Assembly (NCBI RefSeq): GCF_016026235.1
Contig: NZ_CP065613.1
Length of the DNA stretch: 64,000 nt
Source of the DNA: Escherichia coli
Lineage (GTDB): Bacteria > Pseudomonadota > Gammaproteobacteria > Enterobacterales > Enterobacteriaceae
Reading direction: 5' to 3' (one strand)
Shown: positions 55,056 to 61,000 of the stretch, piece by piece
Layout: the number at the start of each line of letters is the position of its first letter
Position numbering within the stretch: the stretch's first letter is position 1
Made by a program: the position numbers

Positions 55056-58000
55056 TCACAATTTCACACAACATACGAGCCGGACGCATAAAGTGTAAAG
55101 CCTGGGGTGCCTAATGAGTGAGCTGACTCACATTAATTGCGTTGCGCTCACTGCCCGCTTTCCAGTCGGGAAACTTGTCGTGCCAGCTGCATTAATGAAT
55201 CGGCCAACGCGCGGGGAGAGGCGGTTTGCGTCTTGGGCGCCAGGGTGGTTTTTCTTTTCACCAGAGAGACGGGCAAAAGCTGATTGCCCTTCACCGCCTG
55301 GCCCTGAGAGAGTTGCAGCAAGCGGTCCACGCTGGTTTGCCCCAGCAGGCGAAAATCCTGTTTGATGGTGGTTAACGGCGGGATATAACACGAGCTGTCT
55401 TCGGTATCGTCGTATCCCACTATCGAGATATCCGCACCAACGCGCAACCCGGACTCGGTAATGGCGCGCATTGCGCCCAGCGCCATCTGATCGTTGGCAA
55501 CCAGCATCGCAGTGGGAACGATGCCCTCATTTAGCATTTGCATGGTTTGTTGAAAACCGGACATGGCACTCCAGTCGCCCTCCCGTTCCGCTATCGGCTG
55601 AATTTGATTGCGAGTGAGATATTTATGCCAGCCCGCCAGACGCAGACGCGCCGAGACAGAACTTAATGGGCCCGCTAACAGCGCGATTTGCTGGTGACCC
55701 AATGCGACCAGATGCTCCACGCCCAGTCGCGTACCGTCTTCATGGGAGAAAATAATACTGTTGATGGGAGTCTGGTCAGAGACATCAAGAAATAACGCCG
55801 GAACATTAGCGCAGGCTGCTTCCACAGCAATGGCATCCTGGTCATCCAGCGGATAGTTAATGATCAGTCCACTGACGCGTTGCGCGAGAAGATTGTGCAC
55901 CGCCGCTTTACAGGCTTCGACGCCGCTTCGTTCTACCATCGACACCACCACGCTGGCACCCAGTTGATCGGCGCGAGATTTAATCGCCGCGACAATTTGC
56001 GACGGCGCGTGCAGGGCCAGACTGGAGGTGGCAACGCCAATCAGCAACGACTGTTTGCCCGCCAGTTGTTGTGCCACGCGGTTGGGAATGTAATTCAGCT
56101 CCGCCATTGCCGCTTCCACTTTTTCCCGCGTTTTCGCAGAAACGTGGCTGGCCTGGTTCACCACGCGGGAAACGGTCTGATAAGAGACACCGGCATACTC
56201 TGCGACATCGTATAGCGTTACTGGTTTCACATTCACCACCCTGAATTGACTCTCTTCCGAGCGCTATCATGCCATACCGCGAAAGGTTTTGCGCCATTCG
56301 GCGGGGCTGACGCCGAAGTGAGATTTAAAATGCTGACGCCAGGTCACAGGTGAGAGAAAACCCACCTCAGCCGCTATCCGCTCAACGGGCAACTGACTGG
56401 ATCCCAACAGTTCCTGGCTACGGCGTAAGCGTTCAGTAATGAGCCATTCGGCGATACTCGAACCGGTCGCTTTCATAAAATGGCGAGTTAATGTGCGGCG
56501 ACTCATCATTACTCGCTGCGCCAGCGAGTCGAGATCATGCTGTTGCGCAATGTTTTGCCGCAGGTAATCCAGCAGGAGGTTTATGCGTTCATCATGGGTA
56601 TTTTTCGGCACCGGTTGCTCAATAAACTGCGCCTGACCGCCAGTGCGATATGGCGGTACGACCATCCGTCGGGCAATATGGTTAGCATAGTCGCTGCCAA
56701 AATGTTGCCGAACAATATACAAACAGCAATCCAGCGCCGCGGCAGTACCGGCAGAGGTAATAATGCCGTCATCGTCTACGTACAACGCGTTAATATCCAG
56801 ATGTGTTTGTGGAAAACGTGCCTGAAATTCACGCTCGAACTCCCAGTGTGTGGCGGCACGCTTATTTTTCAGTAAACCTGCATAGCCGAGCACAAACGTG
56901 CCCAGGCAAAGCCCGACAATCTGTGCGCCGTTATCCCGTGCGGTCGTTAAGGCTTCCAGCAGTTTTTGTGGCGGTTTTTGTGTAATGGTTCCCCAGTAAG
57001 GAATTATCACAATATCTGCCTGGATGACTGCGGTATAGTCATGGGGGGCGGTTACGGAAAACCCATCGGCAGAGTCCACGTTTCCCGGCTTTTCAGCGCA
57101 GATAATTACGTGAAAGTGTTTTTTCTCCGCCATTTTTTCGCTAAATACGATAAACGGTACGGAAAGGTGAAAAGGACTAAAACCGGCAACGGCGATAATG
57201 GCAACAGTTAGCGGGCGCATAACACTCTTTATCTCCGAATTAGAATGTCAACGTTTCACCATCTTCTGGTACGTTCACAAATTCGATAATTTGATTATCT
57301 CTGGCGTATTCCTTGAGCGCATCACGCGTCAGCAAACAGTGGTTTACGGCCTCCATATGTGTCGCGACAATTTGCGCTTCTGGCAGGGTAAAATGTGTTT
57401 TGAGAATATCTTCTGCTCCCATAATTATCGCGCCATGCCCCAGAACATGCGCAAATCCGGCATTCAACACAACCACTTCTGGTTGGAAAGTTAGCATTGT
57501 AACCTCGACGTCGTCACGCCAGAGGGTATCGCCAGCCAGATAGAGCGTTTTCTCTGTCGGGTGCTGGAAAACAACGCCGCAGGCTGCGCCTAAACGCTTC
57601 GCCATAGCCGGGTCGGCATAGGTGCGATCGGAGCCGTGCTGCCCTGTCGTTTTATGCAGAGTAATATCGCCAAATTTAGTCTCGTCGGTAAGTACGGTAA
57701 GATGCGTAAATCCTTGTTTATTCAGTGATTCAGCATCTTGCTCATTTTGCACATAAATCAGTTTATCTTTAGGGACGACGCGGGAGGCTGTTTCGTCCCA
57801 GTGATCTTCATGCAAATGGGTCACGATTAGGGCGTCAACGTTGAGTAACGTTGTTAAATCGCACGGTAATTCTACCGTTGGATTGCGGATTTCTGCGCGT
57901 GCCGTTCCGGCAAAACCCGGATAACTTCCTTTAGGCGCGAGTAACGGGTCGATAAGAAATGTTTTGCCAGCGTATTGGATAATTTGGGTGGCATTACGAA

Positions 58001-61000
58001 TTTGCGTAATTTTCATGATTTGCTCCACATCACAGTATTGATGTCATTAGCGTAGCGTGCAGCCCGTGCTGTGCATGTGGGCAAATGGGCGAATAACGAT
58101 GAGAATGGGCCAAATTACACATTGGCGTAACTAGCGTAAATGCACGCCGCTTCGCCGTCCGGCCACCAGAATAGCCTGCGATTCAACCCCTTCTTCGATC
58201 TGTTTTGCTACCCGTTGTAGTGCCGGAAGATGCTTTTCCGCTGCCTGTTCGATGGTCATTGCGCTCGCCATATACACCAGATTCAGACAGCCAATCACCC
58301 GTTGTTCACTGCGCAGCGGTACGGCGATAGAGGTGATCTTCTCCTCCTGATCCCAGCCGCGGTAGTTCTGTCCGTAACCCTCTTTGCGCGCGCGCGCCAG
58401 AATGGCTTCCAGCTTTAACGGTTCTCGTGCCAGTTGATAGTCATCACCGGGGCGGGAGGCTAACATCTCGATTAATTCCTTGCGTTCTTGTTCCGGGCAA
58501 AAGGCCAGCCAGGTCAGGCCCGAGGCGGTTTTCAGAAGCGGTAAACGTCGCCCGACCATTGCCCAGTGAAAGGATAAGCGGCTGAAACGGTGAGTGGTTT
58601 CGCGTACCACCATTGCATCAACATCCAGCGTGGACACATCTGTCGGCCATACTACTTCGCGCAACAGATCGCCCAGCAGTGGGGCCGCCAGTGCAGAAAT
58701 CCACTGTTCGTCACGAAATCCTTCGCTTAATTGCCGCACTTTGATGGTCAGACGAAAACTATCATCGGAGGGACTACGCCGGACATATCCCTCTTCCTGC
58801 AGCGTCTCCAGCAGTCGCCGCACAGTGGTGCGATGCAGGCCGCTGAGTTCCGCCAGCAGCCCGACGCTGGCACCGCCGTCAAGTTTATTTAACATATTTA
58901 ATAACATTAGACCGCGGGTTAAGCCGCGCACGGTTTTGTATTCCGTCTGCTCATTGTTCTGCATATTAATTGACATTTCTATAGTTAAAACAACGTTGTG
59001 CACCTAGTGCACATTCGGGCATGTTTTGATTGTAGCCGAAAACACCCTTCCTATACTGAGCGCACAATAAAAAATCATTTACATGTTTTTAACAAAATAA
59101 GTTGCGCTGTACTGTGCGCGCAACGGCATTTTGTCCGAGTCGTGAGGTACTGAAATGGCAATACAACACCCTGACATCCAGCCTGCTGTTAACCATAGCG
59201 TTCAGGTGGCGATCGCTGGTACCGGTCCGGTCGGGCTGATGATGGCGAACTATCTCGGCCAGATGGGCATTGACGTGCTGGTGGTGGAGAAACTCGATAA
59301 GTTGATCGACTACCCGCGTGCGATTGGTATTGATGACGAGGCGCTGCGCACCATGCAGTCGGTCGGCCTGGTCGATGATGTTCTGCCGCACACTACGCCG
59401 TGGCACGCGATGCGTTTTCTCACCCCGAAAGGCCGCTGTTTTGCTGATATTCAGCCAATGACCGATGAATTTGGCTGGCCGCGCCGTAACGCCTTTATTC
59501 AGCCTCAGGTCGATGCGGTGATGCTGGAAGGGTTGTCGCGTTTTCCGAATGTGCGCTGCTTGTTTTCCCGCGAGCTGGAGGCCTTCAGCCAGCAAAATGA
59601 CGAAGTGACCTTGCACCTGAAAACGGCAGAAGGGCAGCGGGAAACGGTCAAAGCCCAGTGGCTGGTAGCCTGTGACGGTGGAGCAAGTTTTGTCCGTCGC
59701 ACTCTGAATGTGCCGTTTGAAGGTAAAACTGCGCCAAATCAGTGGATTGTGGTAGATATCGCCAACGATCCGTTAAGTACGCCGCATATCTATTTGTGTT
59801 GCGATCCGGTGCGCCCGTATGTTTCTGCCGCGCTGCCTCATGCGGTACGTCGCTTTGAATTTATGGTGATGCCGGGAGAAACCGAAGAGCAGCTGCGTGA
59901 GCCGCAAAATATGCGCAAGCTGTTAAGCAAAGTGCTGCCTAATCCGGACAATGTTGAATTGATTCGCCAGCGTGTCTACACCCATAACGCGCGACTGGCG
60001 CAACGTTTCCGTATTGATCGCGTACTGCTGGCGGGCGATGCCGCGCACATCATGCCGGTGTGGCAGGGGCAGGGCTATAACAGTGGTATGCGCGACGCCT
60101 TTAACCTCGCCTGGAAACTGGCGTTGGTTATCCAGGGGAAAGCCCGCGATGCGCTGCTCGATACCTATCAACAAGAACGTCGCGATCACGCCAAAGCGAT
60201 GATTGACCTGTCCGTGACGGCGGGCAACGTGCTGGCTCCGCCGAAACGCTGGCAGGGTACGTTACGTGACGGCGTTTCCTGGCTGTTGAATTATCTGCCG
60301 CCAGTAAAACGCTATTTCCTCGAAATGCGCTTCAAGCCGATGCCGCAATATTACGGCGGTGCGCTGGTGCGTGAGGGCGAAGCGAAGCACTCTCCGGTCG
60401 GCAAGATGTTTATTCAGCCGAAAGTCACGCTGGAAAACGGTGACGTGACGCTGCTCGATAACGCGATTGGCGCGAACTTCGCGGTAATTGGCTGGGGATG
60501 CAATCCACTGTGGGGGATGAGCGACGAGCAAATCCAGCAGTGGCGCGCGTTGGGCACACGCTTCATTCAGGTGGTGCCGGAAGTGCAAATTCATACCGCA
60601 CAGGATAACCACGACGGCGTGCTACGCGTGGGCGATACGCAAGGTCGTCTGCGTAGCTGGTTCGCGCAACACAATGCTTCGCTGGTGGTGATGCGCCCGG
60701 ATCGCTTTGTTGCCGCCACCGCCATTCCGCAAACCCTGGGCAAGACCCTGAATAAACTGGCGTCGGTGATGACGCTGACCCGCCCTGATGCCGACGTTTC
60801 TGTCGAAAAGGTAGCCTGATATGCACGCTTATCTTCACTGTCTTTCCCACTCGCCGTTGGTGGGGTATGTCGACCCGGCGCAAGAGGTGCTCGATGAGGT
60901 CGATGGCGTGATTGCCAGCGCCCGCGAGCGTATTGCGGCTTTCTCCCCTGAACTGGTGGTGCTGTTTGCGCCAGATCACTACAACGGCTTTTTCTATGAC

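Follow-up and report, generated by a model that had tools for sequence, protein, structure and literature searches.

Escherichia coli O-island 19 as a probable ancestral operon of a SaxA-family hydrolase homologue and the regulator OvrA

O-island 19 (OI-19) of EHEC O157:H7-type E. coli has been described as a 1834-bp island carrying z0442 (ovrA) and z0443 (PMC8565820; PMC10877973). OvrA, the product of z0442, is an experimentally studied virulence activator of ler and the LEE (PMC8565820, PMC10877973). According to published work it binds the promoter of LEE1, switches on ler and favours adherence and colonisation, and deletion of z0443 leaves virulence unaffected (PMC8565820). z0443 is 10-fold RpoS-dependent in EDL933 (PMC2907692) and is given as "function unknown" in the OI-19 literature.

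The other described systems of relevance are the saxC-saxA(-saxB) locus of Pseudomonas syringae and the SaxA isothiocyanate hydrolase of Pectobacterium (PDB 6BRM). Isothiocyanate hydrolase activity is reported to be kept in all five SaxA clusters, including those of non-plant-pathogens, and two functional Pectobacterium SaxA proteins share a mere 44.9% identity (PMC7036374). A fungal SaxA homologue at 20% identity is still active (PMC7303113). In P. viridiflava, isothiocyanate induces saxA just ~1.4-fold and saxC not at all (PMC12903958), an observation that makes strong isothiocyanate-responsive regulation less probable.

Gene layout and identity with O-island 19

The window is the whole stretch of 64,000 nucleotides of E. 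coli DNA that was analysed. Its ORF list shows lacZ at 51951-55025(-), mhpA at 59155-60819(+) and, between lacI and mhpR, two intact minus-strand genes pointing in the same direction:

55148..56230, minus strand: lacI, flanking gene (55148-56230/56239 in the ORF list)
56267..57220, minus strand: ovrA, z0442 homologue, 317 aa, second in the operon (ORF; Pfam)
57221..57239, minus strand: spacer of 19 nt from the hydrolase stop to the ovrA start, with a GGAG ribosome-binding site (sequence)
57240..58016, minus strand: gene for the MBL-fold hydrolase, z0443 homologue, 258 aa, first in the operon (ORF; Pfam Lactamase_B_2)
58017..58130, minus strand: mhpR-hydrolase spacer of 114 nt, presumed operon promoter region (sequence)
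58131..58964, minus strand: mhpR, flanking gene (ORF list)

The preliminary description of this DNA had placed a compact co-directional pair at 56267-58016, which is exactly the distance from the regulator stop codon to the hydrolase ATG, and had taken the pair to be absent from K-12. Both statements were correct, the two ORFs being 19 nt apart and the K-12-type strain RR1 having only 76 nt from lacI to mhpR. An alternative GTG start of the hydrolase ORF lies at 58028. The 19-nt gap and the GGAG ahead of the second ATG fit an operon, and a terminator scan found no terminator-like site on the minus strand of this gap. Nor was a terminator-like site found between ovrA and lacI, which follows after 36 nt. 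The module is without integrase, transposase, tRNA or inverted repeats and its GC content, 0.46-0.53, is slightly lower than the 0.53-0.58 of the flanking genes.

The segment is the already described OI-19. This follows from the RefSeq label of the regulator ('ovrA: OI-19-encoded virulence regulator OvrA', present in many of the 435 matching genomes), the published content of OI-19 and the near identity of the window proteins to those of EDL933, with two residue differences in each (for OvrA only H35R and P59T, 2/317 residues). The locus, its flanks (lacI, mhpR) and both genes are the same in EDL933, the DNA is 99.1% identical and the size is similar, ~1825 nt between the repeats described below against the published 1834 bp (PMC8565820). 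The window lineage nevertheless differs from EDL933. Its nearest genome is FDAARGOS_943 (99.9%), where RefSeq annotates the hydrolase as a 777-nt CDS, WP_000705457.1, and ovrA as a pseudogene on account of an internal stop, whereas the window ovrA is intact. The earlier term "uncharacterised" does not suit the regulator, which has been studied as OvrA/z0442 (PMC8565820, PMC10877973), but it still suits the hydrolase. What appears to be new is the recognition of z0443 as a SaxA-family homologue, the likeness of OvrA to the regulator in the saxC position, with the pair and an operator-like block upstream of it kept throughout Enterobacterales, and loss rather than insertion of the pair.

The hydrolase and its partner regulator

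Pfam agreed with the proposed pairing of an MBL-fold hydrolase with a GlxA-type AraC regulator containing a DJ-1 domain, though for the hydrolase both the NCBIfam and the Pfam names are generic only. Full-length matches were obtained to PDB 6BRM, 'isothiocyanate hydrolase SaxA' (E 5.6e-88), and to 3RPC (E 2.9e-72). Identity is 54% to 6BRM over the full length of the hydrolase and 51% to the P. syringae-group SaxA P0151, whose UniRef name is aliphatic isothiocyanate resistance protein. Judged by homology, z0443 is clearly related over its full length to the SaxA family of isothiocyanate hydrolases. The proposal of a small detoxification unit survives in this form; of the enzyme types listed with it, glyoxalase II, lactonase, sulfatase and beta-lactamase, none is the closest match and SaxA is nearest instead. 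The ligands H67, H69, D71, H72, H127, D163 and H220 are invariant in an alignment of 11 sequences, two of them from solved structures, and are the same in the P. syringae and Pectobacterium enzymes. The predicted binuclear metal site is complete, a point on which the preliminary description had made its proposal depend.

There are also differences. Pseudomonas SaxA has 293 aa with an N-terminal extension of ~35 residues, and the 258-aa E. coli hydrolase lacks this extension and so is probably cytoplasmic. Unlike in the P. syringae sax locus, no saxB-like isochorismatase gene and no sax efflux genes lie near the E. coli module. A neighbour-joining tree places the E. coli/Citrobacter/Enterobacter clade apart from the clade of 6BRM and also from that of Pseudomonas SaxA. 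Since Enterobacter cloacae DSM 26481 has one member of each enterobacterial clade, these are paralogues and their substrates could differ.

OvrA, with the Pfam domains DJ-1_PfpI, HTH_18 and HTH_AraC, belongs by its sequence to the GlxA family of regulators: its N-terminal part is a DJ-1/PfpI-like domain and its C-terminal part an AraC double HTH. The sequences nearest to its DJ-1 domain are those of isonitrile hydratases, and the nucleophile Cys of one of these, InhA, corresponds in the alignment to C105 (GLCLG). C105 does not vary among the 11 regulator homologues that were aligned, of which 10 are encoded beside a saxA-type gene in other genomes. The domain architecture, the linker PPxRxGGQAQ and the nucleophile-elbow Cys are common to OvrA and the GlxA-family proteins FtrA, GbdR and AdpA. 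Membership of the FtrA or GbdR orthologue groups was ruled out by scores below the equivalog cut-offs (325 bits against 425 for FtrA, 125 against 480 for GbdR).

The P. syringae-group saxA locus reads regulator <- -> saxA, followed by isochorismatase. The regulator in the saxC position shares the DJ-1/PfpI plus AraC architecture of OvrA, and the identity between the two is 44% over the full length, against 28% for a second GlxA paralogue nearby. It is divergent from saxA, whereas the E. coli regulator is downstream and co-transcribed. A species-level scan found a GlxA-type homologue adjoining the hydrolase gene at most of the best 80 loci listed, directly downstream and co-directional in Enterobacterales and in Vibrio, Salinivibrio and Marinomonas, divergent and upstream in Pseudomonas, Stutzerimonas and Advenella. 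Dozens of genera without the LEE keep the pair, among them Enterobacter, Klebsiella, Raoultella, Photorhabdus, Vibrio and Pseudomonas. Such conservation is characteristic of an enzyme paired with its cognate regulator, and control of the LEE by OvrA must then be a later co-option.

The lacI-mhpR junction in E. coli and Citrobacter

Among 5426 complete E. coli genomes, 435 have the module, each with one copy, on the chromosome and at the same site. In 4458 genomes (82%) the junction is of the K-12 type, and a further 487 (9%), including the type strain, have a 99-nt ovrA relic (B2-type). Just the last 33 nt of ovrA are left in K-12-type genomes; this relic, still in frame, codes for the conserved C-terminal residues of the AraC domain. 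Strain 24AR0357 has kept a longer relic, CCGCCGAATGG. The features of the window at the breakpoints are:

56267..56299, minus strand: end of ovrA, last 10 codons and stop (EWRKTFRGMA*), the segment kept in K-12-type genomes (alignments)
56295..56303, plus strand: left copy of an imperfect direct repeat, CATTCGGCG, K-12-type deletion breakpoint (junction alignments)
58120..58127, plus strand: right copy of this repeat, CATTGGCG; the mhpR stop, 58131-58133, is 3 nt away (junction alignments)

The length of the K-12-type junction is exactly that expected for recombination between the two direct repeats. The gene order in Citrobacter rodentium, hydrolase-regulator-lacI-lacZ-lacY, is as in the window, and its regulator-lacI junction is collinear with that of the window at the nucleotide level. 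Protein identity between Citrobacter and E. coli is 72-80% for the pair and 78-83% for LacI and LacZ, so all are about equally diverged. Deeply diverged E. coli lineages have the module in the same collinear context. The Citrobacter synteny and the 33-nt relic together identify the K-12 arrangement as a deletion: the pair is ancestral at the lacI-mhpR site and K-12 lost it. The description of the module as "inserted" must therefore be reversed.

That the module is instead a horizontally acquired island, inserted into a K-12-like ancestral junction as the O-island name implies, is very improbable. Its restriction to 435 genomes, its slightly low GC, the short repeats at both ends (readable as a target duplication), the lack of any other Escherichia species among the best 80 loci listed in the species-level scan and the frequent location of saxA genes on mobile elements (PMC7036374) would all suit an insertion. 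However, insertion would not create an in-frame EWRKTFRGMA* segment in K-12, nor does it sit well with the second, independent relic of B2-type genomes, the collinear junction in C. rodentium, a divergence from Citrobacter equal to that of lacI and lacZ, or 435/435 copies being chromosomal at one site with none of the mobility features sought.

A ~1.8-kb deletion between the short direct repeats would have produced the K-12 arrangement, and a separate, larger deletion, which also removed the mhp operon, would account for the B2-type strains. The pair would thus have been lost twice in E. coli, both times sparing the 3' end of ovrA that bears the lacI promoter. The hexamers within this end, which we take to be those of the lacI promoter, are GCGCAA (-35, 56294..56289) and CATGAT (-10, 56271..56266), with a 17-nt spacer; this promoter was reportedly described by Calos in 1978. 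Where the module is retained, most of the codon differences between six E. coli lineages are synonymous (227 synonymous to 37 nonsynonymous in ovrA, 112 to 36 in the hydrolase gene), which is evidence of selection on the pair. Compared across divergent E. coli lineages, the module shows about half the divergence of its flanking genes, and this could be due to stronger constraint or to some recombination.

Upstream region and proposed function

The 114-nt spacer contains a -10-like CTACGCT but, reading the sequence by eye, no good -35 hexamer upstream of it. It also contains one further feature:

58074..58113, minus strand: conserved operator-like block, TTTGGCCCATTCTCATCGTTATTCGCCCATTTGCCCACAT, candidate site for the cognate GlxA-type regulator (upstream alignment)

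When 13 upstream regions with differing upstream neighbours, taken from 8 genera, were aligned, this block was the only part conserved. Of 86 loci, 43 have its core motif, TGRCCCRATNNCATCG, upstream of the hydrolase gene, and the window copy at 58097-58112 has one mismatch. The site published for OvrA in the LEE1 promoter, GACATTTAATGATAATG, is unlike the block, and a search for it near the module did not find it.

The literature treats OI-19 as specific to O157-type strains, whereas the present evidence points to an operon of ancestral origin that encodes a SaxA-type enzyme. We consider it probable that OI-19 is an operon of a SaxA-type hydrolase and its cognate activator OvrA, lost twice in E. 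coli. This is based on the observed gene content, homology, metal ligands, pair conservation, allele counts and deletion polarity; from these we infer an isothiocyanate substrate, control by OvrA of its own operon and a mechanism by which OvrA would sense isothiocyanates. Transcription most likely starts in the spacer after mhpR, where the operator-like block sits just upstream of a weak promoter that is probably activator- and RpoS-dependent. The transcript would run up to lacI, whose promoter hexamers fall within the last ten codons of ovrA. The enzyme would most likely use its binuclear metal centre for R-N=C=S + H2O -> R-NH2 + COS, the presumed substrates being isothiocyanates, thiol-reactive toxins derived from glucosinolates of cruciferous plants. 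Such compounds reach the gut through crucifer-rich diets and Brassica forage. OvrA would most likely activate its own operon as the equivalent of SaxC in P. syringae, and in LEE-positive strains, as published, it additionally activates ler.

There are two other readings of the pair. The hydrolase, although of the SaxA sequence family, may act in enteric bacteria on a different substrate, another electrophile, a heterocumulene, an ester or a lactone, as part of a detoxification or catabolic unit unrelated to isothiocyanates. The paralogous clade, the generic family names, the gut and environmental enteric hosts (rather than Brassica pathogens) and the isonitrile hydratase-like DJ-1 domain, a hint of other nitrogen-carbon chemistry, would be in keeping with this. 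It is nonetheless unlikely given that isothiocyanates are generally known to reach the gut, that the hydrolase is 51-54% identical to two characterised enzymes, that the genuine P. syringae saxA has the same type of partner regulator and that activity is reported in all five enterobacterial SaxA clusters, across 20-45% identity (PMC7036374, PMC7303113). Less likely still is a primary role for OvrA as a dedicated regulator of virulence in LEE-positive E. coli, with an incidental, functionally unrelated linkage to the hydrolase gene. The published LEE1 binding, ler activation and colonisation phenotype, the lack of a virulence effect on deleting z0443 (PMC8565820) and the dissimilarity of the LEE1 motif to the operator-like block agree with such a role. 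However, the absence of a virulence effect is also what is expected for a detoxification enzyme, and conservation of the pair extends to dozens of genera without a LEE.

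Gene layout and identity of the locus

The ORF list of 52-62 kb placed the hydrolase and regulator genes at exactly the coordinates of the preliminary description, 56267-58016, in the following arrangement.

Genes from lacZ to mhpA (ORF list of 52-62 kb)
51951-55025, minus strand: lacZ
55148-56230, minus strand: lacI
56267-57220, minus strand: regulator gene, 317-aa ORF
57240-58016, minus strand: hydrolase gene, 258-aa ORF
58131-58964, minus strand: mhpR
after mhpR, plus strand: mhpA

An alternative GTG start for the hydrolase gene at 58028 is unsupported, the homologues in an 11-sequence alignment all starting MKITQ. 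Only 19 nt separate the two genes, GGAG precedes the regulator start codon and a scan of 55900-58400 found no terminator-like site on the minus strand within the pair or downstream of it up to lacI. These features argue that the pair is an operon with the hydrolase gene first. The scan also gave no sigma-70 consensus promoter on the minus strand of 55900-58400, which says nothing about the real promoter. As had been claimed, the pair is missing from K-12; lacI and mhpR are only 76 nt apart in strain RR1.

The locus is O-island 19 (OI-19) of E. coli O157:H7 EDL933, described in reviews as an 1834-bp island with two genes (PMC8565820; PMC10877973). Both reviews present z0442 (ovrA) as the gene for an AraC-type activator of ler, which binds at the LEE1 promoter and favours adherence and colonisation; both credit Liu et al. 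2020, J Infect Dis 221:820 (PMC8565820; PMC10877973). The hydrolase gene, z0443, was 10-fold RpoS-dependent in EDL933 (PMC2907692) and published work is quoted in one review as finding it dispensable for virulence (PMC8565820). The flanking genes of ovrA are collinear between the window and EDL933, making the regulator gene the z0442 orthologue at the same locus. The two OvrA proteins are identical at 315 of 317 residues (H35R and P59T) and the hydrolases differ by two changes, V172A and V217I. Recent RefSeq records name the regulator "ovrA: OI-19-encoded virulence regulator OvrA". The ORF in the window is intact, unlike that in the closest genome, FDAARGOS_943 (99.9% identity), whose annotation has ovrA (L001 4168-5121) as a pseudogene interrupted by an internal stop. 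There is no LEE in the window. By megablast, the interior of the module was found in 435 of 5426 complete E. coli genomes, in single copy, always on the chromosome and at 97.6-99.9% identity; O157:H7, O55:H7 and O145:H28 are among the carriers, together with various strains that are not typed. The finding as first stated was thus already known. An EHEC specialist would recognise OI-19 at once and, since the regulator of this catalogued O-island has already been studied, the original finding adds little.

A SaxA-family hydrolase and its neighbouring regulator

The hydrolase matched Pfam Lactamase_B_2. Searched against PDB sequences, residues 1-258 aligned end to end with residues 1-259 of 6BRM, a Pectobacterium chain deposited as "putative metal-dependent isothiocyanate hydrolase SaxA" (E 5.6e-88), and a Veillonella homologue, 3RPC, followed (E 2.9e-72), while the remaining MBL-fold structures all gave E >= 0.007. 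In the 11-sequence alignment, which includes 6BRM and 3RPC, the hydrolase was 54% identical to 6BRM. The preliminary description had named the metal-binding residue set as a test of the hydrolase assignment and the binuclear site proved complete: HxHxDH, a distal His, a bridging Asp and a C-terminal His, with all seven ligands (H67, H69, D71, H72, H127, D163 and H220) invariant in the alignment. The alignment with the cytoplasmic 6BRM chain begins at its residue 1, leaving the hydrolase no room for an N-terminal signal peptide. A SaxA protein of the P. syringae group, P0151, whose UniRef name is aliphatic isothiocyanate resistance protein, is 51% identical over 260 residues and a P. orientalis homologue was deposited as saxA. 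Other functions suggested by the fold found no favour in the family models. A class B beta-lactamase or glyoxalase II was rejected for want of a match to Pfam Lactamase_B (PF00753) or to named NCBIfam families, and a lactonase for want of a specific family-model match; the matches were confined to generic models, Lactamase_B_2/_3 and, at 55 bits where the cut-off is 144, PRK00685.

On these comparisons z0443 is assigned to the SaxA family, of which it is a new, uncharacterised member. PMC7036374 gives the SaxA reaction as conversion of an isothiocyanate to an amine and carbonyl sulfide, and describes the family as widespread in Enterobacterales, with five clusters (CL1-CL5), all of which keep activity and two functional Pectobacterium proteins of only 44.9% mutual identity; a fungal homologue at 20% identity is still an isothiocyanate hydrolase (PMC7303113). 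It is probable that z0443 too hydrolyses isothiocyanates. As a caveat, the E. coli, Citrobacter, Enterobacter and Klebsiella sequences form a clade of their own in a neighbour-joining tree, separate from the clades of 6BRM and of Pseudomonas. The enterobacterial clades are paralogues, since each is represented by one gene in Enterobacter cloacae DSM 26481. Some genomes hold two or three SaxA-family paralogues from different clades (L023 and L066, E. cloacae DSM 26481, with coordinates 2135-2899 in L066; L079 6339-7118), and a GlxA-type regulator gene adjoins each of at least the two main E. cloacae copies. No link between z0443, OI-19 or O157 and SaxA or isothiocyanate hydrolase was found in the open-access literature.

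OvrA consists of an N-terminal DJ-1/PfpI-like domain (DJ-1_PfpI, residues 6-171) and a C-terminal AraC double HTH (HTH_18, residues 233-311; also HTH_AraC). It is not the equivalog of FtrA (NCBIfam NF006902, 325 bits against a cut-off of 425) or of GbdR, being below the NCBIfam cut-off there also. Conservation of the pair was examined by a species-level genome scan with the hydrolase alignment, keeping the best 80 loci, followed by tblastn of these loci with OvrA. An OvrA homologue adjoins the hydrolase gene in most of the 80. It lies directly downstream and co-directional in the loci from Enterobacterales, Vibrio, Salinivibrio and Marinomonas, and upstream and divergent in those from Pseudomonas, Stutzerimonas and Advenella. 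The codon differences among six E. coli lineages are mostly synonymous in both genes, placing both under purifying selection.

In the P. syringae-group locus a gene for a DJ-1/AraC regulator and saxA are divergently oriented, and an isochorismatase gene comes next after saxA. This regulator shares 44% full-length identity with OvrA, against only 28% for a second, neighbouring GlxA paralogue. PMC12903958 lists saxC as a regulator, saxA as a hydrolase and saxB as uncharacterised; the gene order corresponds to saxC-saxA-saxB, the identification of the ORF with saxC being our inference. An association of the hydrolase with a SaxC-type (DJ-1 plus AraC) regulator was found both in this locus and in most of the best 80. 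Three features set the E. coli arrangement apart from the Pseudomonas sax locus: the regulator gene lies downstream in the same direction and not divergently, neither saxB nor efflux genes occur nearby, and the hydrolase is without the extension found at the N-terminus of the Pseudomonas protein. The earlier suggestion of a small detoxification unit is supported and can now be made specific, as a unit with a SaxA-family hydrolase homologue.

Insertion, deletion and the lacI promoter

The pair was originally presented as an insertion between lacI and mhpR, and the name O-island assumes the same. However, the K-12 spacer itself holds GAATGGCGCAAAACCTTTCGCGGTATGGCATGA, which matches without a difference the 3' end of ovrA, ten codons and the stop (EWRKTFRGMA*). 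Part of this relic falls in the conserved end of the AraC domain, to judge by the HTH_18 match, which stops at residue 311, and by the conservation of SPxEWRKTF. A total of 487 genomes, strain 317 and the type strain ATCC 11775 among them, retain 99 nt from the 3' end of ovrA, now fused upstream of yaiL; they have lost the rest of ovrA, the hydrolase gene and the entire mhp operon. The deletion in these genomes is an independent one.

Alleles at the site among 5426 complete E. coli genomes
Full module: 435/5426, 8.0% (an overstatement of the natural frequency, because the collection is heavily enriched for O157:H7)
K-12-type junction, 33-nt relic: 4458/5426, 82%
B2-type junction, 99-nt relic: 487/5426, 9.0%

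Outside E. coli the pair is not absent from related genera, as might be expected for a horizontally acquired island, but adjoins lacI in Citrobacter rodentium and other Citrobacter. The order in C. rodentium is hydrolase-regulator-lacI-lacZ-lacY with a nucleotide-collinear regulator-lacI junction, and members of the C. freundii complex share this order but for an interposed methyltransferase gene. The pair has diverged between E. coli and Citrobacter about as far (72-80% amino-acid identity) as LacI and LacZ have (78-83%). Within E. coli, the module persists in collinear context even in lineages at 4-6% distance from the window in the flanking genes. The module contains no mobility genes, having just two genes, all copies are at one chromosomal site, and no tRNA or attachment site and no terminal inverted repeats accompany it. 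The one feature resembling an island signature, an imperfect 9-nt direct repeat, is better explained as deletion microhomology. The in-frame relic and the Citrobacter synteny thus point to the pair being ancestral at this site and to the K-12 arrangement being a deletion. The insertion reading is unsupported and an evolutionary assumption is corrected, O-islands not necessarily being insertions.

Repeats at the K-12-type breakpoint
56295-56303: left repeat, CATTCGGCG
58120-58127: right repeat, CATTGGCG

The length of the K-12-type junction is exactly that expected for recombination between these two imperfect direct repeats. The mhpR stop codon, TAG, TAA or TGA, is at the same position in all three alleles, and strain 24AR0357 has a longer relic, CCGCCGAATGG. 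The 7 nt from the mhpR stop to GAATGG vary by lineage (CACCATC, TGCCGCC; TTACGCC in the module-bearing allele), so it is length and the intermediate allele, and not perfect identity, that put the breakpoint at the CATT(C)GGCG repeats. There were no Escherichia outgroups among the best 80 loci of the species-level scan, in which E. coli was represented by the B2-type type strain.

Several variants were seen at the site. In N96, E500002 and RMDEC465 (L096-L100 compared with window 52400-61950), lacI, mhpR, mhpA and mhpB are 4-6% different and ovrA and the hydrolase gene 1.4-2.8% different, about half the flanking divergence; constraint or recombination could account for the lower value. A fourth allele in E. 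coli GF4-3, from a guinea fowl in The Gambia (L095, 1-5061), has mhpR, the hydrolase gene and the GlxA-type regulator gene, followed by genes for an adenylate-forming enzyme and a CoA-transferase and not by lacI; the lac operon seems to be missing here or to have been replaced. The methyltransferase gene of the C. freundii complex is on the opposite strand between the regulator gene and lacI (L006/L007 7743-8405, L014 6741-6899), and in C. youngae GTGGCATCATAGCGCGCAG, the counterpart of the ovrA end and lacI -10 region, remains joined to lacI beyond the insertion.

The deletions also bear on the lacI promoter. We take its -35 hexamer to be GCGCAA at 56294..56289, inside the coding end of ovrA, and its -10 hexamer to be CATGAT at 56271..56266, overlapping the ovrA stop codon, an assignment reportedly due to Calos in 1978. 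Read on the minus strand the two are separated by a 17-nt spacer, and they fall within 56267-56299, which corresponds to K-12 L002 2170-2202, the exact 33-nt relic. The same arrangement of hexamers and ovrA end is conserved in C. rodentium. The K-12-type breakpoint is ~5 nt and the B2-type ~70 nt upstream of the -35 hexamer, so that both independent deletions spare the promoter segment, as expected were lacI expression under selection. Tentatively, the textbook K-12 lacI promoter could be the surviving 3' end of a lost ovrA, and the look of this weak promoter would be explained by hexamers lying in the coding 3' end of that gene. The open-access literature yielded no mention of a neighbouring gene as the source of the lacI promoter. 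In module-bearing strains, transcription of z0443-ovrA could read through into lacI, as the interval from ovrA to lacI has no terminator-like site.

Operon control, sensing and significance

An alignment of 13 loci from eight genera with unrelated upstream neighbours showed one conserved block upstream of the hydrolase gene.

Conserved block, window copy
58074-58113: operator-like block, TTTGGCCCATTCTCATCGTTATTCGCCCATTTGCCCACAT

The block core, TGRCCCRATNNCATCG, is upstream of the hydrolase gene in 43 of 86 loci. The block stands directly upstream of a -10-like CTACGCT with no good -35 hexamer in between, the layout expected of an AraC-type activator site overlapping the -35 region, and is thus a candidate site. 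It appears rather more probable than otherwise that OvrA controls its own operon through this block. The published OvrA site at LEE1 is unlike it. When the whole window was searched for the LEE1 site, GACATTTAATGATAATG, allowing up to 3 mismatches, there was no match near the module, so the LEE1 site does not explain control of the operon. The only two matches, each with 3 mismatches, were at 34645-34661 (plus strand) and 54632-54648 (minus strand, inside lacZ), against 0.15 expected by chance; both are probably chance matches in AT-rich sequence.

In an alignment of the DJ-1-like domain, Cys105 of OvrA (GLCLG) falls on the catalytic Cys of the isonitrile hydratase InhA, and C105, H125, C165 and C166 are invariant in 11 regulator homologues, 10 of them from other genomes and beside a saxA-type gene. 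Isothiocyanates are suggested as a natural ligand class for OvrA. That OvrA senses isothiocyanates through Cys105 is conceivable though on balance unlikely, and is weakened by the response in P. viridiflava, where an isothiocyanate induces saxA only about 1.4-fold and saxC not at all (PMC12903958). A wider reading, also on balance unlikely, would make OI-19 an ancestral saxA-saxC-type operon whose OvrA senses isothiocyanates or related thiol-reactive electrophiles through Cys105. Dietary compounds from crucifers would then act via OvrA on the hydrolase operon and drive their own hydrolysis, and the co-opted link from OvrA to ler would place the LEE type III secretion system of EHEC and EPEC under the same dietary signal. 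Read-through from the operon might also influence lacI, whose K-12 promoter would be the ovrA 3' end.

There is active research on isothiocyanates (allyl, benzyl, sulforaphane) as preservatives against EHEC in food and as a means of suppressing Shiga toxin (PMC6017699). z0443, formerly of "unknown" function, is judged from its sequence a strong candidate for an isothiocyanate hydrolase. If this is true, O157:H7, O55:H7 and O145:H28 would have a dedicated degrading enzyme absent from K-12, affecting how isothiocyanate experiments are read. None of the additions made here, neat and testable though they are, comes as a surprise: the link to SaxA and isothiocyanates, the likely ligand class of OvrA and the origin of the lacI promoter.

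Two other regions of the window may be mentioned. The following genes lie at some distance from the module.

Autotransporter segment
5511-7226: betA-like gene, upstream of the autotransporter ORF
7195-8670: betB-like gene, upstream of the autotransporter ORF
9396-11429: betT-like gene, upstream of the autotransporter ORF
11937-15986, plus strand: 1349-aa autotransporter ORF with ESPR signal peptide, autochaperone domain and autotransporter beta-domain

We take the ORF at 11937-15986 to resemble the EhaA adhesin, and K-12 probably lacks this segment too. ORF sizes suggest a cyn operon on the far side of lacZYA, at ~46500-51900; in E. coli 042 (L092 2666-6022) the operon is annotated as cynR, cynT (carbonic anhydrase), cynS (cyanase) and cynX. 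Carbonyl sulfide, the product of SaxA, is a substrate of carbonic anhydrase. The proximity of the cyn operon to the hydrolase gene may well be coincidental.
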